DNA from: Peptococcaceae bacterium
GTDB lineage: Bacteria; Bacillota; Peptococcia; DRI-13; UBA5745
Direction of reading: 5' to 3'
NCBI GenBank assembly: GCA_034927285.1
Contig: JAYFQF010000010.1
Location: 23,032-87,031, forward strand
DNA: 64,000 nucleotides
Each line of letters opens with the position of its first letter. Position 1 is the stretch's first letter. The notes under the pieces are model-generated. The model saw nothing but the letters and a program-made list of their open reading frames with translations, had not been told where the DNA came from and did not search any database. Shown one piece after another: positions 6,780 to 59,086 of this stretch. The position numbers were made by a program, and so were the translations under genes.

Positions 6780-7220
6780 TTATTCGATGGCGATGCGATT
6801 CTGAGCAGGCAATTCTTTCTGCTCCTTTTTCGGCAGGGTGAGCTTCAAAATGCCGTCCTCATATCTGGCCCCCACTTCGCCGGGCTTTACCTCGCCGACA
6901 TAGAAGGTCCGGGAACACTGGCCGCAGTAACGTTCCTGACGAATGTACCTGCCCTCCTGGTCCTTTTCATCTTTATTCATGTTCTTGGCGGCTTTGATGG
7001 TCAGGTAACCGTCGTTCAGCTCCAGATCGATCTCGTCTTTCTTGAAGCCGGGAAGATCAACAGCCACCTCGTAATTCTCCCCGTTTTCTCTGACGTCGGT
7101 CTTCATCAGGTTCTTGGCGTGTTTGCCGTAAAGGGGGCTGCGGTTTCCAAAAAAGCTCTTATCAAAGGCATCGTCAAAGAAACCGTCAAACAGATTTTCA
7201 CCAAAAATGCTAGGCAACAT
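6780..7220 (-). CDS. Hsp20/alpha-crystallin small heat-shock protein
   Basis: 146 aa. Alpha-crystallin core (MKTDVRENGENYEVAVDLPGFKKDEIDLELNDGYLTIKA...YEDGILKLTLPK). Confidence 0.9.
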   Translation of the reverse strand: MLPSIFGENLFDGFFDDAFDKSFFGNRSPLYGKHAKNLMKTDVRENGENYEVAVDLPGFKKDEIDLELNDGYLTIKAAKNMNKDEKDQEGRYIRQERYCGQCSRTFYVGEVKPGEVGARYEDGILKLTLPKKEQKELPAQNRIAIE

Positions 7221-7312
7221 AAGTCATTCCTCCAATCAATATCCTTATCTTGTGCCTTGCCTGGAAGCCTCTCCGGCTCCTTCTTGGTACAACTATAAGA
7301 TACACCGATTTG

Positions 7313-7339
7313 TTAGCACTGTCAAGAGGCGAGTGCTAA
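7313..7339. promoter_or_regulatory. CIRCE element (HrcA operator) upstream of hsp20
   Basis: TTAGCACTG-TCAAGAGGC-GAGTGCTAA matches TTAGCACTC-N9-GAGTGCTAA with one central mismatch. It lies 93 nt upstream of the hsp20 start. Confidence 0.85.
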
Positions 7340-7549
7340 TTTCCCCTGGTATTTACATTTTGAGGAGAGGCTTCCGGGAAAGAACACCTGCAAATCAGAC
7401 TTTAGTATTACCCGGAAAAGGCGGCAACATAACCCTTTTTCCAGTAGCTTTATTAAAAAAATCGTCTCCCGGGAATTCTCTTGGGAATATCTCCGGGAAA
7501 CGATCCGTGGCCTTTTCTCTGCCCTGCCGGTCTTGTTTTTATTCTTTCG

Positions 7550-8104
7550 TCACTTCACCTCGTACTGCCTGCGCCCCTCCTCGTACATGTTCACGCCTTT
7601 TGCGTCAATGGCCACGATAGCCGGGAAGTCTTCCACGGTCATTTTCCGCAGTGCCTCGGCTCCCAGATCCTCATAGCAGATTACCTGGGAGAACTTGATG
7701 CTGCGGGCAATCAGGGCCGCCGCTCCGCCGGTGGCAGCCAGATAAACCGCTCCGGTTTCCTTCATGGCCTCGATAACGGCGTCGTTTCGTTTGCCTTTGC
7801 CGATCATGCCGGCCAGGCCCGCCCGCAAAAGGGCCGGCGTATACTTATCCATACGGTAGCTGGTGGTGGGGCCGGCGGACCCGATGACCCGCCCCGGCGG
7901 GGTGGGGGTTGGGCCGGCATAGTAAATGATCTGGCCCCGGATATCAAAGGGCAGCTCCTTGCCCTGGTCCAGCAAAGCCTGAAAACGCTTATGGGCCGCA
8001 TCCCGGCAGCTATATATTACGCCGCTGATCAGCACGGTGTCGCCGGCCTTCAGGGCGGCCGCCGTTTCCCGGGTCAGCGGGGTCTGAATTCTGATTTCCG
8101 CCAT
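7550..8104 (-). CDS. Class-I fumarate hydratase/tartrate dehydratase beta-type subunit; contextually the mesaconase small subunit
   Basis: 184 aa. GVIYSCRDAAHKR...IIYYAGPTP...GPTTSYRMD...GKGKR motifs of Fe-S hydro-lyase beta subunits. Confidence 0.85.
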   Translation of the reverse strand: MAEIRIQTPLTRETAAALKAGDTVLISGVIYSCRDAAHKRFQALLDQGKELPFDIRGQIIYYAGPTPTPPGRVIGSAGPTTSYRMDKYTPALLRAGLAGMIGKGKRNDAVIEAMKETGAVYLAATGGAAALIARSIKFSQVICYEDLGAEALRKMTVEDFPAIVAIDAKGVNMYEEGRRQYEVK

Positions 8105-8171
8105 GGTATCTTTTCCTCCTGCTTTCCCTTTTCTGCAATACGCGCCGTTCCTGCCGTCATAACGCCCGGCC

Positions 8172-9023
8172 TTAAATCACCGCTTTGCCATGACGGGCGG
8201 CATGACAGCAGACGTTCACCGCCACCGGCAGTCCGGCGATATGGGTAGGGAACCATTCGATATTTACCGCCAGGCAGCTGATGCGTCCCCCCAGGCCTCC
8301 GGGTCCCACGCCGGAGGCGTTGATCCGGGACAGAGCCTTTTGCTCCAAAGCGGCGTAGCGCGGATCGGAATTAGCGCTGCCTACCTGCCGGATGGTGGCC
8401 CTTTTAGCTAACTGGGCGGCCTTATCCATGGTACCGCCCACGCAGACGCCCACGATGGTGGGCGGGCAGGGGTTAGGGCCGGCCCCCACTACGGCGTCCA
8501 CAATAAAGTCCAGGACCCCTTCTTCCCCGTCGGCCGGCACCAGCATTTTCAGACGGCTCATGTTTTCGCTGCCGAAGCCTTTGCAAGTAACGGTCAGGCT
8601 GATCTTATCCCCCGGCGTCAGTTCGGTGTAGATTATGGCGGGACAGTTATCTCTGGTGTTTATCCGATCAAATAAAGGATCGCTGACCACGGACTTCCGC
8701 AGGTAGCCCTCTTCATAAGCTTCCCGGACGCCCTGATTCACGGCGTCGTTGAAGCCGCCGCCGGTAATATGCACCTCCTGCCCTACCTCGGCAAATACCA
8801 CCACCATGCCGGTATCCTGACACATGGGCACCCTCTCGGCGGCGGCAATTTTATCGTTTTCGACAATCTGGTTTAAGATGGACCGTCCCGTGGGCGAAGA
8901 CTCCGCTCCGGCAGCTTTGGTCAAAGCCGCCATGACATCGTCGCCGATCCGGTAATTCGCCTCCAGAAGCAGTCCTTTAAGGGTATCTTTTATTAATGCC
9001 GCAGAAACCTCCCGCATGTTCAC
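8172..9023 (-). CDS. Class-I fumarate hydratase/tartrate dehydratase alpha-type subunit; contextually the mesaconase large subunit
   Basis: 283 aa. PMCQDTGMVVVF... and CPPTIVGVCVGGT motifs of Fe-S hydro-lyase alpha subunits. Confidence 0.85.
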   Translation of the reverse strand: MNMREVSAALIKDTLKGLLLEANYRIGDDVMAALTKAAGAESSPTGRSILNQIVENDKIAAAERVPMCQDTGMVVVFAEVGQEVHITGGGFNDAVNQGVREAYEEGYLRKSVVSDPLFDRINTRDNCPAIIYTELTPGDKISLTVTCKGFGSENMSRLKMLVPADGEEGVLDFIVDAVVGAGPNPCPPTIVGVCVGGTMDKAAQLAKRATIRQVGSANSDPRYAALEQKALSRINASGVGPGGLGGRISCLAVNIEWFPTHIAGLPVAVNVCCHAARHGKAVI

Positions 9024-9075
9024 CTCTCCTTAGCGTCGCTTTCCCAAAACCCCGGGCGTAAAAAACCGGCCGCCG

Positions 9076-10329
9076 CTATTTTCCTGCTTTGGCCTGCCGC
9101 AGCGCCAGAATCCTCTGCATCTCATTGTAAACGATCATAAAGCCTTCGTCAAAACCCATTCCCGGCTTGGCCAGGATCTGGTCCGGCCCGGCTGCCATGG
9201 CGCAATGAACGCAAACCTGAGCGCTGCGGTCGGTTTCGTTGCAGGTGCCGCCCTGGTAAGCGCCGATCCCCTTTGCCTTGCAGTACAGCACCGCCTCGAT
9301 GGTATTATGGATGCTGCCCAGGTCCGGAGTCTTGATCTGGACCATATGGCCGGCTTTGCGGTCCGCAAAGATTTTGATATCCTCCAGGGTGTTGCACCAT
9401 TCGTCGGCCACCAGCTCCACCTTGATGCCCCGCCGGTCCACCAGACTGGTTAACGCGCTCAGTGCTTCCACCTGGCTCTCCCGGTCTGAGTCGCAATCCA
9501 TGGGCCCTTCGATGCGCAGATGGAAGGGGGCCGCCTCCTGCTCCAGCTCCGCCAGATAATCCGCCATTTTTTCATAATTATTATTGCCGAAGGCGGCGCC
9601 GATGGTCCCGTAGCAGTCGATATGCAGCACCGGATGATAGTCCTGGGACTGGCGCCGGGTCAAAATCCGCTGCCGCAGCCAGACCACATATTCCTTCAGC
9701 TTCTCTCCCTGGCGGCCCAGCTTGGCCTCCACGTTATTAATCAGGGCGTGGGGCAAAACATCGGCCTCCTTGATGATCATTTTATCGGCATTGGCGTAGC
9801 GGTCGTCGCCGGTTTGGGCGAAGATCGGGATAGGCCTGTCGGCGATTTCACAGCCGTATTCTTCCGCCACCACTTCGCACATCAGCCGCCGGGAGGCTTT
9901 GGCCACCGCGTCCAAAAGAGCCTGGGATACGCCGTAGCTGATAGCGTGATGCAAAGGCCTTCCCTCGATGCGGATCTCTTCCAGCTGCCGGCAAAGGCTC
10001 CGGAAATCCGCCGCCTCCCGGTCCAAAAACACCGGCTTTATATGCTTTTCGATCAAAGGGATAAAGTCTTTTGCCAAAAAGAGCGGATCCCGGCCGCCGC
10101 AGCCGCTGTACTGCACGGCGGCGCAGTCGCCGTAGGCCACCTGCCCGTCCTCCAGGACAAACATCACGGAAATCGCTTCTCCGGCCTGCCGTACATAGGA
10201 AAAGCCCCCGGTCACCGGATCTCCGTTATAAAAAATCCCGTCCTGGACAGCGCCCCGTTTAATGGCCCGCTGGTCGTCGAAATAAAAACCGGTTTTTGCC
10301 GGAGCACAAAGAATGTCCACAATCTTCAT
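9076..10329 (-). CDS. mal: Methylaspartate ammonia-lyase
   Basis: MKIVDILCAPAKTGFYFDDQRAIKRGA... closely resembles the clostridial beta-methylaspartase N-terminus; enolase-superfamily size. AGGAGG SD; ATG 10329 is preferred over GTG 10332. Confidence 0.9.
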   Translation of the reverse strand: MKIVDILCAPAKTGFYFDDQRAIKRGAVQDGIFYNGDPVTGGFSYVRQAGEAISVMFVLEDGQVAYGDCAAVQYSGCGGRDPLFLAKDFIPLIEKHIKPVFLDREAADFRSLCRQLEEIRIEGRPLHHAISYGVSQALLDAVAKASRRLMCEVVAEEYGCEIADRPIPIFAQTGDDRYANADKMIIKEADVLPHALINNVEAKLGRQGEKLKEYVVWLRQRILTRRQSQDYHPVLHIDCYGTIGAAFGNNNYEKMADYLAELEQEAAPFHLRIEGPMDCDSDRESQVEALSALTSLVDRRGIKVELVADEWCNTLEDIKIFADRKAGHMVQIKTPDLGSIHNTIEAVLYCKAKGIGAYQGGTCNETDRSAQVCVHCAMAAGPDQILAKPGMGFDEGFMIVYNEMQRILALRQAKAGK

Positions 10330-10566
10330 CACTGTCCGCCTCCTGTTTTCCTCTTGGTGATAGAATTTTTTTCGTAAAACCTCCGGGGTCCCGCTTCTTG
10401 ACGCTTTTTAGACCGCTCACTGAATTGCTTACTGCGCCGCTCAGCGAATTACTCATTTTCAATCGCAACTATGATTGCAACTTTAAGTTGCAACTACGAA
10501 TCGCAACCATGGATCGCAGCTTTGAATTGCTTGCTTTGAATTGCCTCCTGCCGGAAGCCGGCCCTC

Positions 10567-12018
10567 TCAATACTTGGGCCGTCCCACCAGCCGGCCTTTG
10601 CCGATGGCGTACACGTCGTCGATGACCATCTGGAAAGAAGCCTTGCGGTTTTCCGCCCTGGCCCGCTCTTCGATCTTTTCCCGGTGAAAATCCTTCAGTT
10701 CCTGGGTAAAGGGCAGATTGCCCATGTTCAGGATCCGGACGGCTCCGTCGTTATCCCTGGCCGGCAGCATCAGGTTGGCGTTGGCCCGGCAGGGGGCAAA
10801 GGGAACGTCCACCACGCCGGCTTTGACGGCCCGGACGGCGCCAAGGGCGATATCTCCTTCCCCCAGCTGGAAGCATTTTTCCACCAGGCAGCGGGTTTCC
10901 TGCCGGATAATTTCTTTTTCTTCCTCTAAATGAGAGTTTTCAAAAGTTTGATCCGCCAGCATATTTACCACCTGCCGGGTGCAGCGGAGCCCCTGGGCAT
11001 TGGCTTCCATGGTGGGGATTCCCGCCGCCTCGTGGGGGCTCTTAACGATGACCTTAGTGGCCTTGGAAAGGCCGGCCACGGTACTGCCCAGGGCAATGAC
11101 GCCAAAGGCCTTGGCTTCATCGGCAGGGAAACCGCCCATCCACTGATGGAGCACCGTGGTGACTTCTACGCCGCTGTAGCCCGCCTTGGCCAGATATTCG
11201 TCGGCCAGTTCCTCTAAGGTGCGGATAGCCGCCACATCCTGGATCAGATTGCCGCACTGGCCATATCCTACGGTAATATTTTTTACCCCCTGCTCCGCCG
11301 CCAAGAGGGCCTCGATCACCGCTACGGCATGGGAGATGCAGGGAGGCACTAAAGTGCCGGTCAGGGGACCGTAGGGTTCCCGATTAATGGATACGCCGTA
11401 TTCTTCATAAAGGCCGGCCAGACGGTCCACGTACTGCCAGTCCTGAATGGTTTTTTCCATGGGCACATTTTTACAATAGGGCAAATTATAGGAAATGCCG
11501 CCCCCTTCAAAGCTGGTAAAGCCGGCGGCCAGGGATACCTCGGCTAAAAGCCGGGCGTCCGGCGTGCCGTGACGGATCTGCACGGGCACCTTGGTGCTTT
11601 CGATGACCCGGCGGCTGTTTTTTACGCCGTGGTTTACCACCGGCAGACCGTTCAGCATGGCCCGGGAAAGGCGGATGGATTCGGCGACGCCGTTTTCCGC
11701 TTCTTCATAGCGGTTCTGCCGGGTATAACTGTCGATTGTGGTGGGCAGAAGATCCGCCTCCCCCTCATCCTGCAAATACTGCATCAGTTTGATATGCTCT
11801 TCGATGACGGGAACGCCGGCCCGGGGCTGGATCAGGGTCCTGCCGCTTTTTTTGGCCCCAAGGAGCTTATCCGCAAAAATCTTTTCCCTGGGCAGGGACT
11901 TATGATAGTCCACCGCCTCCTGCAGTACCACTTCCTTACCGGTAGGCCACTGCAAAAGCACTTCCTGGCGCAGTTCAGCGAATTCTTCTTCGGAAATCTT
12001 CTTGTTTTTAATCTCCAT
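10567..12018 (-). CDS. glmE: Glutamate mutase (methylaspartate mutase) large subunit E
   Basis: 483 aa. [30 protein letters not shown]... is the characteristic GlmE/MutE N-terminus. Confidence 0.9.
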
Positions 12019-13393
12019 CGTCTGCCAGCTCCTTTTTCATTATCCTCAACGCAGTTTCCGGGTAATGGGGAGTCAAAAGTCCCATAGCCGCCAGAATATA
12101 GCGGCGGTCCACCAGGATCCGGGCCTTCTGGGGCCGCAGGGAAAATGGGTCCGTGCCCTTGAATAGGCCGTGGGCCGCGATCTCCCGGACCCGGGGGCTG
12201 TGGATCAGGCTGCCGCCGGTGACCACGATATGCTCTACCCCGGTCAGGTCTTTGCCGGTCTGCACATAGGCAGGCCCGGCGGCGGTATAGACCTCCTCCA
12301 GTTTGCCGGCATGTCGGGACATAGCGGTTTCCACCGCCAGACAGGCTAAGGCATAGTCCAGGGACGCCAGCTCCCGGTCAGCTCCGGGCAAGGCCTCCGT
12401 ATGCCGACCCAGGTATTCCACCAGCTCCAGGACCCGCTCTTCGGGCAAGCCGGAAAGCTCCGCCAGCCGCTGGGGCCCCGCCGCTTCCAGGATGCCGCGG
12501 ATGCTGTAGCGCATGCCGATATCCCCTTCCACGGTACGCTTTACGTAAGGCTCCGGCAGGCCCCGGTAAAGGATGGTATCCCTGGCCGGCCCGCCTTCCG
12601 CCACAGAATACACATCCGTAGTGGCTCCGCCCACGTCCACAGCCATCAGCTGGCCCAGACCCGGTTCGCCGGGACAGCCTTCCGCCAAAAGCTCCATGGC
12701 CTGCATCACCGCCGCCGGAGTAGGGATAAGGGGACCGTCCATCAGGGCGGCCGCCTGGGAAAGGCCTTTAGCCTGGATGATCCGGTTCAGGAAGATCTCC
12801 CGGATCTGTTTTTGGCTGGGAACGGTATTCAAGACGCCGAATTTCGGCATGACATTTTCACAAAGGTAAACCTGATGTCCTGACAGAAGACGGCCGCATT
12901 CCTGCAGAGCGCTGCGGTTTCCCGCCACGACCACAGGCCACTCCGGCGGCAAAGCCGCCAGCATCCCGGCGTTGTGCAGGATACAATCCGAATTTCCCCC
13001 GTCGGTTCCGCCCACCAAAAGCAGGATATCCGGCCGGGCCGCCAGGATTTCTTCCACATCCTCCCGGGTCAGCTGGAAAGAGTAGAACTTCAGGATCTTG
13101 GCGCCGGCTCCTAAGGTGGCCTGCCGGGCCGCCGCCACCGTCAGCTCCGGCATCAGGCCGCTGACGATCATCTTTAAGCCTCCGGCGGCGGATGAACAGG
13201 CAAAACGCCGGTCAAAAGCCACGGGGCCGATCCGTTCCGTCAAGTCCGCCAGGGCTTTGGCAAAACCCCGGTTAATATCCGTTTCTACCGTGGTATAAGC
13301 CTCGGCGGTACCCAGTACGGTTTCCTGCTCCAGGTCCACCGCCGTGACCTTGGTATAGGTGCTGCCAAAGTCCGCCAGCAGAACCGGTTTCAT
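12008..13393 (-). CDS. glmL: Glutamate mutase accessory/reactivating protein GlmL (MutL of the glutamate mutase system)
   Basis: 461 aa. [20 protein letters not shown]... actin/hsp70-like ATPase fold motifs. Overlaps glmS and glmE, indicating translational coupling. Confidence 0.85.
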
Positions 13394-13938
13394 CGGATCC
13401 TCGCCTCCGCCTTTTCTGCGCCGCCGAAGTTTTCCCGGCGCGCAGTCTCAGCCGCCGGACCTTCTTCCAGCCCTTCCTCCGGTCCTTCCCCCGGCGCCTC
13501 TAAAGAAATCTCTCCCGCCTTTTCTTCCGGTACGCCCAAAAGCTCTTTTAAGGCCCGGATTACCGCCTCCGGCGCCGTATTGGGAGGAAAAGCCATGGTA
13601 AACCCCATATCCTTAAAACGTTTTTCTACCTCGGCAAAATTCTGCTTGCCGATAACGATATTTCCGCCGATCAGCAAGGGGATCTCTCCAAGGCCGGCTT
13701 CCACGCATTTTTCCCGCATCCCCCGGCAGTCCAGCTCTCCCTGGCCGTACAGGGATCCGATGACGATGGCGTCGGCGCCGGTCTCGATGGCGGCGGCGAT
13801 AAACTCCTCCTGGGATACCATCACGCCCAGGTTTGCCACTTCAAAACCTGCCTCGGTAAAGGCGTGGTACAAAATTTTGTTTCCCACGGCATGAACGTCG
13901 GAACCGATGACGCCCAGAACCAATGTCTTTTTTTCCAC
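13390..13938 (-). CDS. glmS: Glutamate mutase B12-binding small subunit S with about 45-aa acidic C-terminal extension
   Basis: [23 protein letters not shown] (DxHxxG cobalamin-binding motif)...GGNIVIGKQ. 182 aa versus about 137 aa as I recall for characterised GlmS/MutS. Confidence 0.9.
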
Positions 13939-13995
13939 AGAAGCGCCCCCTTATGCTTGTTTCCTTCAGGGATTTACCACTTGTTCTATGTTTAT

Positions 13996-14024
13996 AATTT
14001 ATATTAGACTATAACAATTGTCAA
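13996..14024 (-). promoter_or_regulatory. Candidate promoter of the glmS-led operon
   Basis: Minus strand: TTGACA (14024-14019), 17 nt, TAAATT (14001-13996). An ACAATTGT palindrome overlaps the -35. Confidence 0.45.
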
Positions 14025-14247
14025 TATCGGAAAGAGTAAAATTAAGGAAACAATATTTTTGCTCTTTTGGCAGGCGCACATCCCGGTTTCTCATATAAGC
14101 CGGCAGCCCGGCCTCCCATACGGGAACATATCCCGGCTTTTCATCAGGGCAGCTTTTGCTCCCGGGAAATCCTTTTCGGAAAGAGGCCGCCGGATGAGGA
14201 TAGTATCCCGCCTCTCCCCGGATTTATCACAAAAAAGGCCTTTCCGT

Positions 14248-15378
14248 TCAAAACTCCGCTCCCCGGGCCAAAAGGGGTTTATTGGCGGCGGTATAACTGT
14301 TTTTGGCCTTCAGCTCCCCGATCCGCTCCTGCAAATACAAAAGGGACCCTTCATCTGCCCGATAGGCGCAAAGAACCCTGCGCCGGGCCCGGGTATTCAA
14401 AAGCTCCAGCGTATCCCTGCGGCAAAAGACATCATAATCCCGGGGCAAAAGCACCGCTTCTTTACCTTCAAGCCAGCCCGCCAGGCTCTCCCGGTCTTCC
14501 AGAAGGCAGGAAGGCGAAAGCTTTAAGCCGGGAGCATAGGACCGGCAGCTATTACGCAGCCTTGCCTCAAATTGAGGGCTGGCGCTGAGAATGCCCACAC
14601 CGCCCCGGCGCGCCTCCGCCGCCGTATCCCGGTCTGCCCCCGCCAGGCCTTCCCCCAGGGAGCCCGCCGGGTCTGCCCCCGCCGGACCGGCCAAAGCCGC
14701 CCTTCCGGCGTGAGCCTCCTCCAGGGCCAAAGCCGCCAGCTCCCCGGCGCAAGCCTCTTCCAGAGCCAAAGCCACCCTCATCAGCTTCTCCTTTTCCGGA
14801 ATCACTTCCTCCAGGGCGGCAAAGCAGGCCGGGGTGGTCAAAATCAAGTCCATTTCCTCCCCCAGCTTATAAGGATTGACCAGGGCCTCCCGCAGGGAGC
14901 AGGGAAAGATCCGTACCCCTTCCAGGCTTTTCAGCTGATCCGCCGCCTGGCGCAGTATCTCCGGCTCATTTTCCACCATGGCAATTTTGATTTCCGTTTC
15001 TTCCTGAGAGCGTTCCCTAAGCTTCAGCTCAAAAAAAATGCCGACTTCCGCCAAAGTGAACTCCAGATCCGCCAATTGGTCCAGCAGCCCGTCGATGGCT
15101 TTCATGGCCCGGTCTTTACGGCTTTGCTGGCTTTCCCTCAGTTCCCGGACAAAAGTTCCCCGGCCCCGGGTCATCTCGAGGGCTCCCAGGGCTTCCAGCT
15201 CATCGTAAGCGTGCTTGATGGTGCCCCGGGCCAGCCCCATGCCGTCGGCCAGCTGCCGTACCGTAGGCAGCTGGGTCCCTGCCGGCAGGTTTCCGCTTTT
15301 GATATCCCCGTGGATCAGCTGGACCAGCTGTTGATAAGCCGGCAGCCTGCTGTCGGGATTAATCGTATATTTGCGCAA
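14248..15378 (-). CDS. GntR-family transcriptional regulator with a large C-terminal domain carrying an Ala-rich repeat insertion
   Basis: Winged HTH: [66 protein letters not shown]. Proposed start is TTG 15378 after AAGGCGGAG. The 486-aa track ORF overlaps citF and is rejected. Confidence 0.75.
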
Positions 15379-15443
15379 TGTTCTCCGCCTTCTTTGCTGA
15401 TCTATTTTTTGCGAACAGGGCACGACCGGCGGCCCTGTCTTTT

Positions 15444-16859
15444 TTATGGCCGTTCCGGCCGGGGCATATAAACGGTGTCCTGCAGCCCTCCGTCCCGGCC
15501 GATCACCTTTGCCAGCGGCTTTTGGGTCATGGCGGGCCGCTTCGGCACCCCGGTGATTTTTTCCGCTTTTGCCTTCAGCTCCTCTGCCGGAAGCACCGGC
15601 AGGCCCGCCTCCTTCAACCGCAGAGCCAGCTCCTGCCGCCGGGGGTTTACGGCGATGCCCCGCTGCGTCACCAGCACGTCCACATCCCGGCCGGGAGTGG
15701 AAACGCACAGCACCCGGTCGGTAAGGATGGGCAGACGCCCCCGAAACAGCGGGGCAATGATGATGGCCAGCCCGGCGCCCGCCGCGGTATCGCTGTGGCC
15801 CCCGGAGCCGCCCATCAGGACGCCGTTGGAATCCGTATGCACATTGACGTTGAAATCGATGTCGATCTCCGTGGCCCCCAGGATCACCACGTCCAGGCTG
15901 TCCACCACGGCGCTTTTTGCGCCGGGAGAAGCATATTGCAGGGCGGAAATCTCCCGGTGCCGGGGGTTGTTCCGGATGGACTCCACCGCCTCCAAGTCAA
16001 AGCACTGGACATCCAGCAGCGATTCAAAACAGCCCTCGTTCAGCATATCCACCATATAGCCGGTGATGCCGCCCAGACCGAAGCTGCCCACGATCTTTTC
16101 CTCCTTCATCCGGTCCTTCAGGAATTTGGCCGCGGCTAAAGAAGCTCCGCCGGCCCCGGTCTGAAAGGAAAACCCGTCTTTGAGAAGCCCCGAGGCCCGG
16201 ATCACTTCGGCGGCCTTTTCCGCCATCACCAGCCCCACCGGATCTCGGGTGATTTTCGTGGTGCCGGACACGATGCCGGCGGCGTCGCCGATTTCTTCCG
16301 CGACTACCACGTAATCCACATAAATCTCGGGGATAGACCAGTCCCGCAAAGGATAAGGCACCAGATGGTCGGTGACGGCAATCACTTTTTTGGCCGCCAT
16401 GGCGTCGGCAAAGGCATAGCCCAGGCTGCCGCAGGCGGACTTGCCGTATTTACCGCTGAGGTTTCCCCTGGGGTCGCTGGCGGGAGCGGCGATAAAGGCC
16501 AGGTCCACCGGTGTTTTGCCGGATTGGATATCCCCGGCGCGGCCGCCGTGGGTACGGAATTCCACAGGCTTTTCCAGCACGCCCTGGGAAAAACGGCGGC
16601 CGATGCCGGCAGACATATAGTCGGTCTGTACCCCGGTGACCACGCCGCTGCGGATATGATCCAGCAAGGGCAGATGGATGTCGAAAAGAGAGCTGGCATT
16701 GACGGTGAGATCCTTCAGCCCCAGGGCGGCGATTTCCGCCAGGGCCATATTCAATACATAGTCGCCGTTGCGGAGGTGATGATGAAAGGAAATGGTCATG
16801 CCGCTTTCCAGGCCGGCCAGCCGGATGGCTTCCCTCAGGGTTTTTACGACTTTATTCAT
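15444..16859 (-). CDS. citF: Citrate-lyase-type alpha subunit (acyl-ACP:substrate CoA-transferase); contextually citramalate lyase alpha
   Basis: 471 aa. [33 protein letters not shown]... is a typical CitF N-terminus. Confidence 0.9.
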
Positions 16860-17736
16860 GCCCTTCGCTCCTTCCCAGCCCCAGTTTTTCCGCCGCCGCC
16901 ATGGTTTGGCGGGCCCGGGCCACGATGGGGGCGTCGATCATTTTGCCGTGCAGCGACACGGCGCCTTTGCCCTGGGCCCGGGCCTTCCGGATAGTCTCCA
17001 GAACCTCCCAGGCATAGTCGATCTCCGGCAAAGTTGGGCTGAACACTTGGTTTATAACGCTCACATGCCGGGGAGAAATGGCGGCTTTGCCGGAAAAGCC
17101 CAGGCTTCTGGCCTGCCGGGCGTCGTCCTCCAGCCCCCGGTCGTCGTTCACGTCGGTAAAAGGCGTATCGTACACTTCCAGCCCGGCGGCCCGGGCGGCC
17201 ATCACCAGACGGCTGCGGGCATACAGGATCTCCCCGCCTTCTTTGGTCCGTTTGCAGCGCAGATCCGCCGTCAGATCCTCCGCCCCCAAGAAAAGGGCTT
17301 CTACCCGGGGACTGGCGCCGGCGATGGCAAAAGCGTTTTCCACCCCCAGGGCAGTTTCGATCAGAGGCAAAAGCCGGATCGTTTCCGAAACCAGCCCCGC
17401 CTCCTTTTCAAGACCGGCAAGAAAATCCTCCAGCCGGCAGATGTCCTGAGGGCCGCTGATTTTTGCCGGCATAATCAGGTCCGGCTTTAAAGGCGCGATT
17501 TCCCGCAGATCCGCCTGCCAGTAAGGCGTGTCCAAAGAATTGATCCGCACCACCCGCCGGCAGCCTCCCGGGTCCAGAGTCTGCAAAGCGTTGCGCACCA
17601 GGATGCGGGCCGCGTCCTTTTCCTCGGGGGAAACGGCGTCTTCCAGGTCAAAAATTACGGCGTCGGCTCCCAGGGCGGCGGCGTTGATGATGATATTCGG
17701 CGTATTGCCGGGTAAAAACAGCAGAGAACGGATCAT
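16852..17736 (-). CDS. citE: Citrate-lyase-type beta subunit (citryl/citramalyl-ACP lyase)
   Basis: 294 aa. RSLLFLPGNTPNII...ADAVIFDLEDAV... HpcH/CitE motifs. Confidence 0.9.
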   Translation of the reverse strand: MIRSLLFLPGNTPNIIINAAALGADAVIFDLEDAVSPEEKDAARILVRNALQTLDPGGCRRVVRINSLDTPYWQADLREIAPLKPDLIMPAKISGPQDICRLEDFLAGLEKEAGLVSETIRLLPLIETALGVENAFAIAGASPRVEALFLGAEDLTADLRCKRTKEGGEILYARSRLVMAARAAGLEVYDTPFTDVNDDRGLEDDARQARSLGFSGKAAISPRHVSVINQVFSPTLPEIDYAWEVLETIRKARAQGKGAVSLHGKMIDAPIVARARQTMAAAEKLGLGRSEGHE

Positions 17737-18008
17737 TCTTCCGCCTCCTTCCCCCGCAGGACGGCGGTTTCGATCCTGGCCCGGATAACGCAGTCCAGGG
17801 CCCCCCGGTCATTGAGCCGCAGCCTGGCCTTCTCTACCTGCAGCTTTTCCAGGGTCTGCCGGGCCACCGCCAGAATCTGCGGGCCAAACTGCCGGTAGAC
17901 CACGGACTCCAATTGGATTTCCAACCCTTCCCCGCAGGGCTCCAGCTCCACATAGACGTCGCTGGACTCCAGGGTGCCGGCGGAAGCCCGTCTTACAATC
18001 TCAGTCAA
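17733..18008 (-). CDS. citD: Citrate-lyase-type gamma subunit (acyl carrier protein)
   Basis: 91 aa. AGTLESSDVYVELEP contains the prosthetic-group serine motif of CitD. Confidence 0.85.
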   Translation of the reverse strand: MTEIVRRASAGTLESSDVYVELEPCGEGLEIQLESVVYRQFGPQILAVARQTLEKLQVEKARLRLNDRGALDCVIRARIETAVLRGKEAEE

Positions 18009-18182
18009 TTTGGGCCAGCCTCCTTTCAGCCTGAAAATTGTACTAGATCAATCTGCCTTTATTATATGATATAATCCTCTTCATTTTCAACAGCTGTTTG
18101 AAAAAAATACTATTCAAGAAACAACCGGTAGGGTATACTGAAAGGAACAGAAAACCTCCCCCCTTGCCGCCGCTATCGTGAG

Positions 18183-19190
18183 GTGATGATGATGGAGCTT
18201 GAATTCGGTTATCCTTTTACCGGCCCACAGCAAAAAAGCCTGGCCGCTTTTCTGGCGGCCCAGGGGCTGGGCTATGATGAAGACATTGAATTCACCGTAA
18301 ATCTGGTGGAAAACCGGCAGCTTATCGCCACCGGCTCCCTGGCGGGCTACGTTTTAAAATGTCTGGCGGTGGAAACCGGGCGGCAGGGCCAGGGACTGAT
18401 GGCCTTGCTGGTCACCGAGCTGCGCAAGGAAGCCTTTGCCCGGGGCCAGGATCAGCTCCTGGCCTTCACCAAGCCCGCAAACAGCCTGCTCTTTGAGTCC
18501 CTGGGCTTTTTCCCCGTGGCCGCCACCGCCGACGCCTGCCTGTTGGAGAGCCGCCGAAACGGCGTGACGGACTTCGTCCGCTCCTTGCAAGGCCCTCTCC
18601 GGGGGGGACGGATCGGCTGTATCGTAGCTAACTGCGACCCCTTCACCAGAGGCCACCGCTATCTGACAGAAACCGCCGCCGCCGCCTGCGACTGGCTGTA
18701 TCTGCTGATCCTCTCCGAGGACCGGGGGCTTTTTTCCGCCGGAGACCGGCTGGCTTTGGCCCGGGAAAATACGGCGGACCTGCCCAACGTTTCCGTCCAC
18801 CCCACCGGCGTTTACCAGGTTTCCCGGGCAACCTTTCCCGAGTACTTCCTCCGGGACAAAACCCGGGCCGCCGAGATCAGCTGCCGGCTGGACCTGACGA
18901 TCTTTGCCCGGCATTTTGCCCCGGCCCTGGGAATCAGCCGCCGCTTCGTGGGTACGGAACCTTTGTCTTTGGTGACCCGGGAATATAACGAACAGATGAA
19001 AGCCTTTTTGCCCGGCCTGGGCATTGCCGTGGAGGAGATTCCCCGCCTGGAGGTAAAGGGCGGGCCCGTCAGCGCCAGCCGGGTACGGGCTTTGTGGCGC
19101 CAGGGCGATCTGGCGGAACTGGCCCCTTTGGTGCCGGAAGCCACCCGGCGCTTTTTACGGCAGACGGCGGCAAAACAGCTTTCGGATTGA
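18183..19190 (+). CDS. citC: [Citrate (pro-3S)-lyase] ligase type acetate:SH-ACP ligase
   Basis: 335 aa. N-terminal GNAT-like part plus IVANCDPFTRGHRYL nucleotidyltransferase motif. The start lies among GTG 18183 and ATG 18186-18192. Confidence 0.85.
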   Translation: MMMMELEFGYPFTGPQQKSLAAFLAAQGLGYDEDIEFTVNLVENRQLIATGSLAGYVLKCLAVETGRQGQGLMALLVTELRKEAFARGQDQLLAFTKPANSLLFESLGFFPVAATADACLLESRRNGVTDFVRSLQGPLRGGRIGCIVANCDPFTRGHRYLTETAAAACDWLYLLILSEDRGLFSAGDRLALARENTADLPNVSVHPTGVYQVSRATFPEYFLRDKTRAAEISCRLDLTIFARHFAPALGISRRFVGTEPLSLVTREYNEQMKAFLPGLGIAVEEIPRLEVKGGPVSASRVRALWRQGDLAELAPLVPEATRRFLRQTAAKQLSD

Positions 19191-19227
19191 GCCGGCGAAA
19201 CGGCTTTCGCCCGGAAAGGAGGCTCCT

Positions 19228-20148
19228 ATGCCTTATTCCCATAAAATGCAGAAAAGTCACCTCTACAGCGTCTTTTACGCTCCCCGGGGCCGGCAGCGCA
19301 TCTACGAGCTGGGCATCCAGCTTTCCCAGCTGTACTTAAGCCCTTTCGACCATATTATCGGCATTGTGGGTGAGCCCGGCTCCGGAAAAAGCATGCTGAT
19401 CAAAGGCATGTTTCCCGGCCTGGAACTGACCAACGACGACAACGGCGTCAATATCCGTCCCCTGCCCCTTTTAGAGCAGGATCAGGAGAATCTCTTTTTT
19501 GTCCCGCATACTTATCATGTGGACATCCGTTTCGAAACCGGCTTCACCCAAATGCAGACTCTGGCCGACGCCATCATGGAGGCGGTGCGGCGGGATAAGC
19601 GGGTGATTGTGGAGCATTTTGACCTGGTCTATCCCTTTTTGCCCCGAAACGCCGACTTATTGCTGGGCATCGGGGAGGAAGTGATCATCACCCGTCCCGG
19701 CCTCTTCGGCCCCGACCCCCGGGATCTCTATGAAAAGGTCAGTAAATCCCTGGCCATGCGCCTGATGGCCCACACCGCCGAAGACCTTTGCGAGAAATTT
19801 ATGCCTCCGGAGGAACTGGCCCGCTGCAAGCACGACGACGTCAAGCACGGCTTCATCCTGGCCTTTGAGGATAAAGAACCGGAGATCGACTTGGCGGAAC
19901 TGGAAGCCAAAGTAAAGGAAAGCATCGCCCAGGACCTGCCCATCTGCTATCTGGATGAGGAACACATCACCATCGACGGCGAACCCCACCTGTGCACCGG
20001 GCCCCGCACCCACGTGCCCCGGACCGGCATGATCAAAGGCTTCCGGCTTTTGCAGCATTTTATTCACGATGAACGCAACGACCGTTACCTGATGGTGGGG
20101 CTGGTGGGGGAGGATTCCCAAAGCCGGCTGGACATCATCAGTATGTAA
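19228..20148 (+). CDS. Uncharacterised P-loop protein (Walker A GEPGSGKS)
   Basis: 306 aa. Strong SD (AAAGGAGG) 5 nt before ATG 19228. VGEPGSGKSMLIKGMFPGLELTNDDNG gives a P-loop followed by a DD motif. I recognised no family. Confidence 0.6.
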   Translation: MPYSHKMQKSHLYSVFYAPRGRQRIYELGIQLSQLYLSPFDHIIGIVGEPGSGKSMLIKGMFPGLELTNDDNGVNIRPLPLLEQDQENLFFVPHTYHVDIRFETGFTQMQTLADAIMEAVRRDKRVIVEHFDLVYPFLPRNADLLLGIGEEVIITRPGLFGPDPRDLYEKVSKSLAMRLMAHTAEDLCEKFMPPEELARCKHDDVKHGFILAFEDKEPEIDLAELEAKVKESIAQDLPICYLDEEHITIDGEPHLCTGPRTHVPRTGMIKGFRLLQHFIHDERNDRYLMVGLVGEDSQSRLDIISM

Positions 20149-20750
20149 AACGTACGGGGACGGACCGGCCCTCCGGCAGGGCACGCAGCCCGGCCTGTGT
20201 TCATTCGGCAGGCAACGCAGCGGGACTGTGTTTACCGGGATTTAGTTATGTTTTTATTGCAAATCCCGGTAAATTTTCCCGGCCGTCTGTCGGGAAAAGA
20301 CATCCTATTATTTTATTCTTGCCCAGAGGACGAATTGCCGATATCCGCCCTCGATATCCTGTTTCTGTCTCCTCCGCAAGGGAAAACCAGATGTTCAGAG
20401 AGGCTTTACCGGGATTCGCTTTAAAAACATCGCATTTTTCCGGTAAACAAAGGTCATCAGCGGTGAGGAGTCCTTTCCTTGTCCTTATCCCCCTCATCCA
20501 GGTCCTGATCCCTGCCTTTTTAATCTTTGGCCTTTTCCAACCCTTATCCAGAGGAACGCAGCTTCTGCTTAACGCTAAAGCTCCGGCCCATCTCAACCAC
20601 GCCCTTATCCACAGAGCAGCAGCTACTGCCGGTCTTAATCAATCCTTTTGGTCACCCCGGCGGCGGCCGCCCGTTGATTCTTTGAGCATGATACGACGTA
20701 CAAATCATTCATCCCAGATAAAAAACCGCTATGACAAAGAGGATCGCCAA

Positions 20751-22430
20751 ATGAAAAGGACAGGCAGAAGAAAAAGGATATCTCCTGTAAACCGGACACA
20801 CCGGATCAGGCGAAACCGCCCGGCAAAGGAGGCTCGCCCGGCAAAGGAGGCTCGCCCGGCAAGGGGGGATCGCCCGGCAAAGGCAGCCTGCCGGCCCGGC
20901 AAGGCTTTCCCCCCAAACTGCCCCGCCGGCGAAAATCCCGGGGAGGAGTGCCCCAGCACTTTTTCCTTCTGGCCCCCGGTGGAACTGGACCAGCTCCTGG
21001 CCTTCCGGGACCGGCGGCAAGCCCTGCAGCGGAAGCTTCTGGCGGACTTTGGTTATCCCTTGATCGCCTTTACCATGAACATCCCGGGCCCGGTAAAGAA
21101 CTCGCCCCTGATCGAGCTGGCTTTTTCCCAGGGAATGGTCCGGCTGACGGAAGAGCTGGGCCGGCCGTTAGCCTGCCGCCGCCTGCGGGAAGCGGCGGGC
21201 TGCGCCGCCTTCCTGGTTTATGACCGGCCGGCGGCAGAATTGAAAGCCCTTTGCCTCAGGCTGGAGGATGAGATTCCGGCCGGACGGCTTTGGGATATGG
21301 ACGTATTGGACAGCCAGGGTGAAAAGCTGAACCGCCCCCAGCCCCGCCGCTGTCTGCTCTGTGGTGAGCCGGCCTTCGTCTGTTCCCGGAGCCGCCGTCA
21401 TCCCTTGCCGCAGCTTCAGGAGCGGACCCAAAGCCTGCTGACGGACCTGGCGGCATCGGTTTTATCCGCCGCCGCTGTAAACGCCTTGCTCTGGGAGGCC
21501 CGTCTGACGCCTAAGCCGGGCCTTGTTGACCGGCGGAATAACGGCGCTCACCGGGATATGAACCTGGCCCTGTTTGAAGTCAGCGCCCGGTCTTTGCATG
21601 ATTATTTTGCCCTGGCCTGCCGTCTGGGAGCAGCCCGTCGGGACTGTCTGCCCCAGTTGCGGCGGGCGGGCCTTGAGGCGGAAAAACGCATGCTGGAAGC
21701 TACCGGCGGGGTAAATACCCACAAGGGCGCCATCTATTCCTTCGGCATATTCTTGGCCGCCCTGGGCAGCCGGCTGCTGCGGGGGAGCCAGGTCTTCGGC
21801 CTGGCGGCCCGGCTGGCGGCGGAACAGGCAAGAACGGCGGAGGATGAGGAATCGCCGCCAGCCGAAGCCGCCTCAGGAATAACCGCGGCAAAGCCAGCGG
21901 CGGAATCACCGGAGGCCGAAACTGCCCCGGTCATAACCGCGGCAAAGCCGGCGGCGGAATCGCCGGCAGCCGAAGCCGCACTGGTACCCGGCCCGGCCTC
22001 CGCCGGAGGAAAGGCCCCTTCCCCTGCCAGTCACGGCCGCCAGGTTTATCTGCGCTACGGCCTGGGCGGCGCGCGGCAAGAGGCCATGGCCGGCTTCCCT
22101 TTGGCCCGCAGGGCCTGGAAGTTTCTCCGGAAAGCCGGCCCCCGGGACTGCGGGACGACGCTTCCGAAGGATAGTGCCGGTTTGAGGGCTTTTTTAGAAA
22201 TCCTTGCGGTCTGCAATGATACCAACCTGCTTTACCGGGGAGGCGAAGCAGGTCTGGCCTTTGCCCGGGAAGAAGCCAGGCGGCTCCTGAGGGTTCCGTC
22301 CCGCCGGCGGCTTGCCCTGCTGGAAGCCCTGGACAAGGAGTTTATCCGGCGGAATTTAAGCCCCGGCGGCTGCGCCGACATTCTGGGCCTGGGTTGTTTT
22401 TTGTTTCTGACGGAAAGGATCTGGAATTGA
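20751..22430 (+). CDS. citXG: CitX-CitG fusion: holo-ACP synthase (apo-citrate lyase phosphoribosyl-dephospho-CoA transferase) fused to triphosphoribosyl-dephospho-CoA synthase
   Basis: CitX part: LLAFRDRRQALQ...IAFTMNIPGPVKNSP...GRLWDMDVL...RRCLLCGEPA. CitG part: PKPGLVDRRNNGAHRDM...GGVNTHKGAIYS...NLLYRGG...SPGGCADIL. The start is uncertain: ATG 20751 gives a basic repeat-containing leader, and GTG 20978 is the alternative. Confidence 0.8.
   Translation: MKRTGRRKRISPVNRTHRIRRNRPAKEARPAKEARPARGDRPAKAACRPGKAFPPNCPAGENPGEECPSTFSFWPPVELDQLLAFRDRRQALQRKLLADFGYPLIAFTMNIPGPVKNSPLIELAFSQGMVRLTEELGRPLACRRLREAAGCAAFLVYDRPAAELKALCLRLEDEIPAGRLWDMDVLDSQGEKLNRPQPRRCLLCGEPAFVCSRSRRHPLPQLQERTQSLLTDLAASVLSAAAVNALLWEARLTPKPGLVDRRNNGAHRDMNLALFEVSARSLHDYFALACRLGAARRDCLPQLRRAGLEAEKRMLEATGGVNTHKGAIYSFGIFLAALGSRLLRGSQVFGLAARLAAEQARTAEDEESPPAEAASGITAAKPAAESPEAETAPVITAAKPAAESPAAEAALVPGPASAGGKAPSPASHGRQVYLRYGLGGARQEAMAGFPLARRAWKFLRKAGPRDCGTTLPKDSAGLRAFLEILAVCNDTNLLYRGGEAGLAFAREEARRLLRVPSRRRLALLEALDKEFIRRNLSPGGCADILGLGCFLFLTERIWN
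20819..20890 (+). repeat. 18-bp tandem repeat, 4 copies (CCCGGCAAAGGAGGCTCG)
   Basis: Copies at 20819, 20837, 20855 (diverged) and 20873 (diverged). In frame with the citXG ORF (RPAKEA units). Confidence 0.85.
21879..21974 (+). repeat. 54-bp tandem duplication inside the CitG domain
   Basis: ATAACCGCGGCAAAGCC(A/G)GCGGCGGAATC(A/G)CCGG...GCCGAA occurs at 21879 and 21933. It encodes ITAAKPAAESPxAE twice. Confidence 0.85.
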
Positions 22431-22546
22431 TTCCATAAAAAAACGCTTTATCGGAAAGCCTTTCCGGTAAAGCGTTTTCCCTTGTCTTCCGATGTCGGAC
22501 CGGCAGCGTGGCGGCCGCCGGTCCCGGCTCTCCCTGCCTCAAGGAA

Positions 22547-23902
22547 TTAAACAGGCTGCCGGCCTTTCCCCTCCGGATCTTCGGGCAGCTTCAGTCCGTA
22601 CAGGGCGATGGCGTTTTCCCGCAGAATACCGGCGGCGATCTCCTTGCACAGTTCCAGGTCGTAATGGCCGGAAGCGGCTTTCTCCGCCAATACTTCCGTC
22701 AGAATCTGCCGCATCATCCGGCAATGGGCGTAAGCCTCCTCCACATAGAAGCAGTCCCCGCCCCAGGTGATCTTGCTGTAAGGCACCGCGTCCAGGCTCT
22801 CCGAAAGATAGTTTTTCGTCAATGTCTCACAGATGACGGAAAGCCAGTTCAAGCTCAGATAAGCGTTAGGAATACTCTTGGCCATGGCGGAGGCCTGCCA
22901 GACCCAGGGGTAGCCGGAATGGAACAGGTCAAACCGGGTGTCCGGGTTGGCGTTGATCAGCTCCACCAGTTCATGGGGACCGTTCCCTTTTGTATAAAGA
23001 GAGCCAAAGCAGCGCATACCGGTATGAATCTCGTAGACAATATCATGTTCCCCCGCCTTTTTTGCCAGCAGGTAAACGATATAGTCCTGGAAGCTCCGGG
23101 CGTCCGCCGCCGACGCATCCTTGCCTGCCGCCCAGGCCCGGGCGGCTTTTTCCCGTCCCTGAGGCAGAAAGTTCAGATCCCGGTAATAGCCCAGGGTGGA
23201 TTTGATCCCATAGAAGCCCCGGGATTTTAAGGTGCTCATCAGTTCCGCCAGAAAGGCCTCATACTCTTCAAAGGTCTCGATTTTTATGCCGAACTTCTCA
23301 AAGACGGCGGTCCGGGCCCCCGCAAGATAGCCGAAGGACAAGAAGTCGGTGCGGAAAACCGGCTTGAACCGGTGATAGCCGGCCTTTTCCGGAGCAAAGG
23401 TTTTTCCGCCGCCCTGGCAGTCTCCACCCTTATTTTTTTCCAACAGCCACAGCTCGAAGTTGGTGGTCTGGCCTTTATCCAACAGGGAAACCTGGATGTT
23501 GGCCCGATCGCCCAGAACATAGTCGTACCACTCTTCTCCCTTGGCGGCGCTTTCCTGGGTGTACCGGGATAAAACGGCGTAATCAAGGGTAAGAATGTCA
23601 TCCTCCACTTGGTAAAGCTCCCGGAAGATCAGCTTCAGCACTTTGTAATATGTAGTATTCCGGGTCTTCCTTAGTCCGGCTCTGACTGCCCGCCACTTTT
23701 CCTCCGGGGAACCGGCTTTCGCCCAGTCCCCGCTGCCAAAGCCGGCGGACCTCAGGTCGTCCGTTATATACATGCCTTGAATCATTGACAAAATATTCCG
23801 TTTGTCCGTCTTCAGACAATGCGGGAAGCAAAAATGCTCGTGGGTATCCACCACCGGGATCCGCCCGATAAATTCCGCCAGTTCTTCATCATACCGCCCC
23901 AT
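22547..23902 (-). CDS. Metal-dependent amidohydrolase-superfamily protein (TIM-barrel hydrolase)
   Basis: 451 aa. IPVVDTHEHF N-terminal metal-binding motif. Substrate unknown. Confidence 0.6.
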   Translation of the reverse strand: MGRYDEELAEFIGRIPVVDTHEHFCFPHCLKTDKRNILSMIQGMYITDDLRSAGFGSGDWAKAGSPEEKWRAVRAGLRKTRNTTYYKVLKLIFRELYQVEDDILTLDYAVLSRYTQESAAKGEEWYDYVLGDRANIQVSLLDKGQTTNFELWLLEKNKGGDCQGGGKTFAPEKAGYHRFKPVFRTDFLSFGYLAGARTAVFEKFGIKIETFEEYEAFLAELMSTLKSRGFYGIKSTLGYYRDLNFLPQGREKAARAWAAGKDASAADARSFQDYIVYLLAKKAGEHDIVYEIHTGMRCFGSLYTKGNGPHELVELINANPDTRFDLFHSGYPWVWQASAMAKSIPNAYLSLNWLSVICETLTKNYLSESLDAVPYSKITWGGDCFYVEEAYAHCRMMRQILTEVLAEKAASGHYDLELCKEIAAGILRENAIALYGLKLPEDPEGKGRQPV

Positions 23903-55755: not shown

Positions 55756-55774
55756 TCCTTTTCACCTCGGCTTC

Positions 55775-57784
<2,010 letters not shown>

Positions 57785-57908
57785 TCATATACCCCCATGA
57801 CGCGACCATTGCCTTTTCACTTAGGAATAACTATTTTTATACACTTTTATTTTAGCCTTTTTTCAGATATTTTGCAAGGCCTATCTGTGGGAGTATAAAA
57901 AAATAGCC

Positions 57909-59057: not shown

Positions 59058-59086
59058 AGAAATCCGCCGATCTTCGTTTTTTATGC

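Follow-up and report, generated by a model that had tools for sequence, protein, structure and literature searches.

We analysed a 64,000-nucleotide stretch of the Peptococcaceae bacterium assembly GCA_034927285.1 (contig JAYFQF010000010.1, positions 23,032 to 87,031 of the forward strand), referred to below as the window, and report on a gene block at its positions 7550 to 22430 that probably encodes a complete methylaspartate pathway of glutamate fermentation. Gene identities were assigned from a list of open reading frames (ORFs), NCBIfam profiles with their curated cut-offs, and Pfam. Every gene that a preliminary description of the window had named was recovered at the same position and in the same orientation: on the minus strand mesB, mesA, mal, glmE, glmL, glmS, gntR, citF, citE and citD follow one another, while citC, a gene for a Walker-A (P-loop) protein and a citX-citG fusion lie divergent from citD on the plus strand, with profile matches for citC, CitX and CitG. 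The genes are as follows.

7550-8104, minus strand: mesB, beta subunit of a two-subunit class I (Fe-S) fumarase-type hydro-lyase, the putative mesaconase; PRK06842, 286 bits (cut-off 238)
8172-9023, minus strand: mesA, alpha subunit of the putative mesaconase; PRK06246, 377 bits (cut-off 276)
9076-10332, minus strand: mal, methylaspartate ammonia-lyase; TIGR01502, 590 bits (cut-off 286), covering profile positions 1-407 of 408
10567-12018, minus strand: glmE, glutamate mutase subunit E; TIGR01503, 758 bits (cut-off 390)
12008-13393, minus strand: glmL, glutamate mutase accessory (reactivating) protein; NF040745, 594 bits (cut-off 475)
13390-13938, minus strand: glmS, B12-binding subunit S of glutamate mutase; NF002612, 207 bits (cut-off 110)
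14248-15378, minus strand: GntR-family regulator of 376 amino acids; Pfam GntR, 55 bits, with a C-terminal YmtS_Ross-type domain (PF27163)
15444-16859, minus strand: citF-like alpha subunit, predicted acyl-carrier-protein (ACP) transferase exchanging acyl-ACP with citramalate; TIGR01584, 579 bits (cut-off 501)
16852-17736, minus strand: citE-like beta subunit, predicted citramalyl-ACP lyase; TIGR01588, 290 bits (under the cut-off of 443)
17733-18008, minus strand: citD-like acyl carrier protein (gamma subunit); NF009726, 107 bits (cut-off 65)
18183-19190, plus strand: citC, acetate:HS-ACP ligase; TIGR00124, 309 bits (cut-off 262)
19228-20148, plus strand: 306-amino-acid Walker-A (P-loop) protein outside any Pfam or NCBIfam family; a TsaE-like P-loop domain followed by a domain resembling AlaX and the editing domain of alanyl-tRNA synthetase (AlaRS)
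20751-22430, plus strand: citX-citG fusion, holo-ACP synthase plus triphosphoribosyl-dephospho-CoA synthase; Pfam CitX 150 bits and CitG 232 bits, N-terminus uncertain

Profile E-values run from 1e-15 for the helix-turn-helix domain of the GntR protein and 1e-28 for CitD down to 1e-228 for the strongest match, all well outside what chance would give, and the curated cut-offs are reached by all catalytic genes except CitE and the CitG domain. Against the tartrate dehydratase beta model of NCBIfam, MesB scores 102 bits (cut-off 264). The catalytic genes are all full length, with open frames that span their profiles from end to end, and the cluster is therefore intact. Its DNA is 96-100% identical, and its proteins are identical, in three independent public assemblies, one of them GCA_040306955.1 ("MAG: Peptococcaceae bacterium"), and the same gene set is syntenic in dozens of genomes.

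Two gene starts depart from the mechanical ORFs. The GntR gene begins at 15378 and not at 15708, as in the 376-amino-acid gene call on an identical public contig. The ORF containing citXG spans 20319-22430, and a further N-terminal domain of CitXG in its first 220 codons was considered and rejected, as this part is low-complexity and derived from repeats. The first ~145-220 codons show no CitX homology in any relative, and for want of such a counterpart we place the start of citXG at the ATG at 20751 or somewhat later; read from 20751, homology with the orthologue in the nearest relative (locus L094) starts at about residue 65.

Putative citramalate lyase and mesaconase in the proposed pathway

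We propose, with a probability of roughly 0.85, that the genes of the block provide for every step of the methylaspartate route by which glutamate is converted to pyruvate and acetate, with MesAB as the putative mesaconase and CitDEF, CitC and CitXG as the putative citramalate lyase system. In this scheme, GlmS and GlmE would form an adenosylcobalamin-dependent glutamate mutase, kept active by GlmL, that yields (2S,3S)-3-methylaspartate, from which Mal would remove ammonia to give mesaconate. MesAB, as an oxygen-sensitive [4Fe-4S] hydratase of the class I fumarase type, would then add water to mesaconate to form (S)-citramalate. In the citrate-lyase-like complex, made up of the transferase CitF, the lyase CitE and the carrier CitD, citramalate would be exchanged onto the acetyl-thioester of the carrier, and cleavage of the carrier-bound citramalyl group would release pyruvate and regenerate the acetyl form. 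CitG and CitX would build and attach the phosphoribosyl-dephospho-CoA prosthetic group, and CitC would re-acetylate its thiol. The GntR-type protein is likely the local regulator of the block, and a response to glutamate may be surmised; a GntR-family gene sits at the equivalent position in 46 of 87 related loci.

The reading, already put forward in the preliminary description, that the fumarase homologue is a mesaconase and CitDEF/CitC/CitXG a citramalate lyase is supported by conserved linkage, by a separate CitE/CitF subgroup and by the lack of citrate-use genes in the window. Equivalogs of glmS, glmE and glmL lie here with mal adjacent, and mesAB, citDEF, citC and citXG are found within the same 15 kb. 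For linkage, the window's proteins were searched with tblastn against 87 loci collected through the P-loop gene, and even though many of these contigs end early, CitE was found in 75, CitF in 69, CitD in 67, MesA in 59, CitC in 57 and GlmS in 54. Four loci that were seeded independently, on CitE, all carry citDEF, mesAB, glmSLE and mal. In Peptoclostridium acidaminophilum the same cluster adjoins histidine-to-glutamate (hut) genes.

The CitE and CitF proteins of these clusters are separate from those of the Escherichia coli and Enterococcus faecium citrate-lyase operons. Within the cluster-linked group CitE is at least 52% identical (median 69%; 70 non-redundant sequences), against 36-44% identity to the CitE of the two citrate operons, which are themselves 52% identical across phyla; to free-standing CoA-ester lyases the cluster-linked CitE shows 28-40% identity. 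For CitF the corresponding figures are at least 61% within the group and 46-52% to the E. coli and E. faecium proteins. With the citE model TIGR01588, five cluster-linked proteins score 290-322 bits (293-322 for the four other than that of the window), under the cut-off of 443 that the E. coli and E. faecium controls pass with 452 and 470 bits. With the citF model TIGR01584, cluster-linked proteins reach 579-624 bits and the same controls 811-816. The CitE orthologue of P. acidaminophilum has already been named "CoA ester lyase" by the Prokaryotic Genome Annotation Pipeline.

The gene complement of a citramalate lyase of the Clostridium tetanomorphum type (EC 4.1.3.22) is present, namely citD, citE and citF with citC, citX and citG, and the three homologous citrate-lyase-type subunits CitF, CitE and CitD are all recognised. 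CitD carries the prosthetic-group serine in the motif AGTLESSDV, which 67 sequences conserve and which lines up with E. coli CitD, so that the ACP-based mechanism appears to be kept. In MesA, conservation among 58 orthologues is at least 95% at Cys68, Cys75, Cys186 and Cys273, and three of these cysteines presumably, by analogy, bind the [4Fe-4S] cluster.

Several points weigh against this assignment. The citrate-lyase references are two only, those of E. coli and E. faecium, and the subgroups were separated by gaps in identity and score, not by a broad phylogeny. CitF still exceeds the citrate-lyase equivalog cut-off (579 against 501 bits). The window showed neither a glutamate transporter nor a cobalamin adenosyltransferase. 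MesAB exceeds the cut-offs of the "fumarate hydratase" models, and mesaconase and fumarase are not separable by sequence; we know of no sequence signature for a preference between mesaconate and fumarate. Class I fumarases are promiscuous, FumA, FumB and FumD each hydrating both fumarate and mesaconate (Kronen and Berg, 2015, PLoS One, PMC4682846), and MesAB may for this reason act on fumarate too. Because no enzyme of a CitDEF cluster expressed and assayed on citramalate versus citrate was found in the literature searched, the preferences proposed here for the lyase, like that for the hydratase, are drawn from gene context and not from enzymology.

Taken together, the CitF score, the activities of FumA, FumB and FumD and the fumarate hydratase matches of MesAB could also be accommodated by generalist enzymes, with CitDEF cleaving both citrate and citramalate and MesAB an ordinary fumarase that also handles mesaconate, in which case the cluster would allow no dedicated assignment. 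We regard this as unlikely: the citrate lyase of E. coli was found inactive as a citramalate lyase (Kronen and Berg, 2015), so the two activities are separable within the family, the pathway-linked CitE and CitF form a separate and tightly conserved group, and no citrate uptake genes lie nearby.

It is more improbable still that CitDEF, CitC and CitXG are a true citrate lyase (EC 4.1.3.6) that merely lies beside glutamate mutase genes. Such is the default annotation, and the citF, citD, citC and citX models are all passed; yet CitE fails the equivalog model that the E. coli and E. faecium controls pass, and the linkage to mesAB, glm and mal genes is conserved over many genomes. As the preliminary description had noted, the window lacks a citrate transporter and an oxaloacetate decarboxylase; among all ORFs of at least 150 amino acids in the 64 kb we found no gene for citrate uptake, oxaloacetate decarboxylase or the CitAB citrate sensor. 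The comparison with the citCDEFXG operons of E. coli and E. faecium leads in the same direction. Both have homologous alpha, beta and gamma subunits, the same carrier serine motif and the same CitC, CitX and CitG, whereas the CitE of the window falls ~150 bits under the citE equivalog cut-off that theirs exceed, and its CitF is ~40 residues shorter at the N-terminus than citrate-lyase CitF. The E. faecium operon includes a 2-hydroxycarboxylate transporter and malic enzyme, and that of E. coli CitT and DpiAB, neither with a P-loop gene; the block in the window, unlike these operons, has no transporter or sensor kinase and an additional P-loop gene between citC and citXG. The reference enzyme cited by Kronen and Berg (2015) is the citrate lyase of Klebsiella.

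The putative citramalate lyase differs as well from other systems with related parts. The RipC/Ccl lyases for citramalyl-CoA and other CoA esters share the HpcH/HpaI fold with CitE, and the window's CitE scores 188 bits with the RipC_Ccl model (cut-off 375), but the substrates of these lyases are CoA esters, the CoA transferase is a separate enzyme, and ACP, CitF and CitC/X/G are lacking. The enterobacterial glm-mal-fumD cluster (E. coli O157:H7 and 042) holds together glutamate mutase, GlmL, Mal and a class I fumarase homologue, as in the window; its FumD is a single chain, an AtuA/DUF4387 pair replaces citDEF, and CitC/X/G and a P-loop homologue are absent. This second layout of the pathway, in which mal is followed by AtuA-family and DUF4387 proteins without citDEF, was observed in three of the loci compared (L098, 1-6011 and 10001-12385; L099, 3-6382; L100, which is E. 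coli 042, 6884-16315). In a 2026 preprint another citramalate lyase was used, "CmlAB" from Raoultella, which has two subunits; the AtuA/DUF4387 pair is a candidate for this enzyme.

The conserved P-loop protein

The 306-amino-acid product of the gene between citC and citXG matched no Pfam or NCBIfam family, and the gene goes unmentioned in the literature searched, including the text and legends of Kronen and Berg (2015). Its relatives number more than 3,498, most of them at 60-70% identity, and databases name them "hypothetical" or after a weak tRNA_SAD match; a profile scan with one genome per species recovered the family in at least 547 genomes. The protein is as conserved as CitE and CitF, and far better conserved than CitC (41-58% identical), CitX (36-49%) and CitG (29-41%) of these loci. 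Compared with 1.84 billion cluster representatives, the family consists of one main cluster and a few divergent full-length lineages, and no distant relatives were found among those representatives.

Twenty aligned members have in common the Walker A motif, nine histidines and the motifs MFPGLELTNDD, PHTYHVDIRFE, MAHTAEDL and HxCTGPRTHV. In a Foldseek search with an AlphaFold model (predicted local distance difference test score, pLDDT, 74.8), the N-terminal half matched TsaE/YjeE (E=3e-6) and the C-terminal half matched AlaX and the AlaRS editing domain (E=2e-4 to 6e-4). Among the 20 members, Pfam gave sub-threshold matches only, to tRNA_SAD (PF07973) in 17 and to TsaE (PF02367) in 14 (best E=0.0047). 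The alignment by hhalign to E. coli TsaE comprises a helix and the P-loop (E=0.0015, 38 columns). That to E. coli AlaRS places CTGPRTHVxxTGxIxxFRLL of the P-loop protein on CGG--THASRTGDIGLFRI, with CTGPRTHV against CGG--THA, and the HTAEDL motif was matched by eye to the HSATHL zinc motif of the same enzyme. HTAED and CTGPRTH thus line up with HSATH and CGGTH, the second histidine of the first motif being an aspartate; for the AlaX-type zinc motifs HxxxH and CxxxH the protein has HTAED and C-x5-H, and the PF07973 threshold is unreached. The model therefore resembles a TsaE fused to an AlaX-like editing domain, two domains in one chain that reach neither Pfam model, and the gene's partners are glutamate-fermentation genes (cit and mes neighbours), not tsaB, tsaD or tRNA genes. 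A degenerate ABC ATPase was also considered and set aside, since a profile search of the PDB gave matches at the level of the Walker A motif only (E≥0.014) and the fold search pointed to TsaE and AlaX. The C-terminal domain found no meaningful match among PDB sequences.

The position of the gene varies among 88 related loci. In 36, citD is divergent from citC, the P-loop gene and citX or citXG, as in the window; in 13 the gene follows citC with citXG elsewhere; in another 13 it stands next to citD in divergent orientation, citC and citXG being absent from the vicinity; and in ~19 it is detached from citC, citX and citD, a few loci being truncated or mixed. All four CitE-seeded loci contain it. 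Two divergent members (41-45% identical) occur in clusters without citDEF or citC/X/G: one reads glmSLE-mal-AtuA-DUF4387 and, farther on, P-loop-mesAB, with the P-loop gene overlapping mesA, and the other mal-AtuA-DUF4387-P-loop followed by a fused fumarase. These two members weaken the idea of a maturation factor specific to citrate lyase, and the E. coli cluster glm-mal-AtuA-DUF4387-fumD, which has no homologue, rules out a part universal to the pathway. From these layouts, including those without citDEF, it therefore follows that the gene accompanies the anaerobic methylaspartate pathway, beside whichever citramalate-cleaving genes and mesaconase occur, and not the citrate-lyase maturation machinery as such.

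Based on these observations, we put at about even odds that the anaerobic methylaspartate pathway has in the P-loop protein a near-obligatory and so far unrecognised part, in which an ATPase of the TsaE type is joined to a metal-binding domain resembling AlaX. Its role may lie, in no order of preference, in the control or repair of the acetyl-thioester state of citramalate lyase, in the upkeep of the Fe-S mesaconase, in work with the ASKHA-fold protein GlmL on the adenosyl cofactor, and/or in the hydrolysis of tRNA mis-acylated with 3-methylaspartate, the pathway's non-protein amino acid.

Repeats, surroundings and significance of the cluster

Besides the genes, the locus contains the following features.

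10333-10566, minus strand: glmE-mal intergenic region, with a 13-bp tandem array at 10461-10527 (~5 copies, Tandem Repeats Finder)
14024-13996, minus strand: promoter-like site upstream of glmS
18090-18061, minus strand: promoter-like site upstream of citD
20149-20750, or to ~20980 if citXG starts later: lineage-specific non-coding insert of ~600-830 nucleotides between the P-loop gene and citXG
22440-22478, plus strand: strong terminator-like hairpin 3' of citXG, an 18-bp stem followed by a T-rich tail

The insert before citXG is present only in the near-identical contigs L001-L003, and the corresponding gap is 40 nucleotides in the nearest relative. It includes an imperfect 61-nucleotide inverted repeat (20213-20273 and 20405-20465), and at ~20799-20906 there is an 18-bp tandem repeat, CGCCCGGCAAAGGAGGCT, counted as 3.7 copies by Tandem Repeats Finder and as 5 overlapping 36-nucleotide copies by a repeat search. 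Riboswitches or other RNAs in the intergenic regions or in the stretch 20149-20980 were considered and dropped, as Rfam gave no match at the gathering score in the window, nor at E≤1 in 7000-23000. The unit of the 13-bp glmE-mal array reads TTGCRAYnnnnnG on the coding strand, and this array could be a regulator binding array.

Repeats also occur within genes. GlmS has a ~45-amino-acid low-complexity C-terminal extension (13390-13530) with a 12-bp repeat at 13455-13494; the protein is 86% identical over residues 1-134 to the 144-amino-acid orthologue of the nearest relative, in which the extension is absent. CitG has a ~70-amino-acid insert rich in Ala, Pro and Glu (~21810-22035), in a region that does not align with that relative, and the GntR gene contains an in-frame 39-bp repeat (14689-14779). 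It is barely conceivable that the cluster is decaying in this lineage, with expression or function impaired by the repeat-bearing insert that splits the P-loop gene from citXG and is absent from the nearest relative, and by the in-frame, low-complexity expansions of GlmS, CitG and GntR, since every frame is open over the full length of its profile, conservation of the locus is 96-100% among the three public assemblies, and the expansions are confined to linkers or termini.

Elsewhere the window contains feoB, a small heat-shock gene, serS, serine-pathway genes, a gerA spore-germination operon and ackA. Convergent with citXG lies a gene for a 451-amino-acid Amidohydro_2 protein (22547-23902, minus strand), kept at the same place in the nearest relative with 77% identity. 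Two tandem paralogous AraC-family regulators of ~420 amino acids (26217-27470 and 27532-28803, minus strand) adjoin an ABC/FtsX exporter and a two-component system. The genes gyrA, gyrB, recF, dnaN and dnaA stand in a row at 53314-61449 (minus strand), and the window therefore adjoins the chromosomal replication origin, with ~30-45 kb between the glutamate cluster and dnaA.

Clusters of this type were drawn by Kronen and Berg (2015; their Figure 4) for C. tetanomorphum, C. tetani, C. carboxidivorans, Alkaliphilus, Desulfitobacterium, Dictyoglomus and others, with GntR, GlmS, MutL/GlmL, GlmE, Mal, MesAB, CitDEF and CitCXG named in the legend. Those authors identified the "citrate lyase" genes of the cluster as a putative citramalate lyase, citing Buckel and Bobi (1976) for the C. 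tetanomorphum enzyme as a citrate-lyase-like multi-subunit complex, and Boiangiu et al. (2005), by whom the fumarase homologues of C. tetani were putatively designated mesaconase. The gene set, names and proposed roles are the same as in the window, which differs in its uncultured Peptococcaceae host, a metagenome-assembled genome of ~55-60% G+C, in gene order and in its lineage-specific inserts. The earlier expectation that the locus would provide a clean genetic assignment is thus nothing new, the same assignment, still from context, having been published in 2015. The present reading correctly re-derives that assignment in a new Peptococcaceae host. Clusters of this type are known from clostridia, and the sole new element of this one is the highly conserved P-loop gene.

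For the pathway layout known in print since 2015, the cluster supplies an example from the Peptococcaceae, and otherwise little changes. The gap of ~150 bits in CitE scores, together with identities of 36-44% against at least 52%, could be used by annotation pipelines to avoid miscalling these enzymes as citrate lyase. Activity EC 4.1.3.22 of the CitDEF type appears to be without a tested sequence. The methylaspartate pathway has been under study since the 1950s, and it may have a missing part in the P-loop gene, which is conserved like the catalytic subunits and whose annotations are restricted to "hypothetical" or the name of a weakly matching domain.

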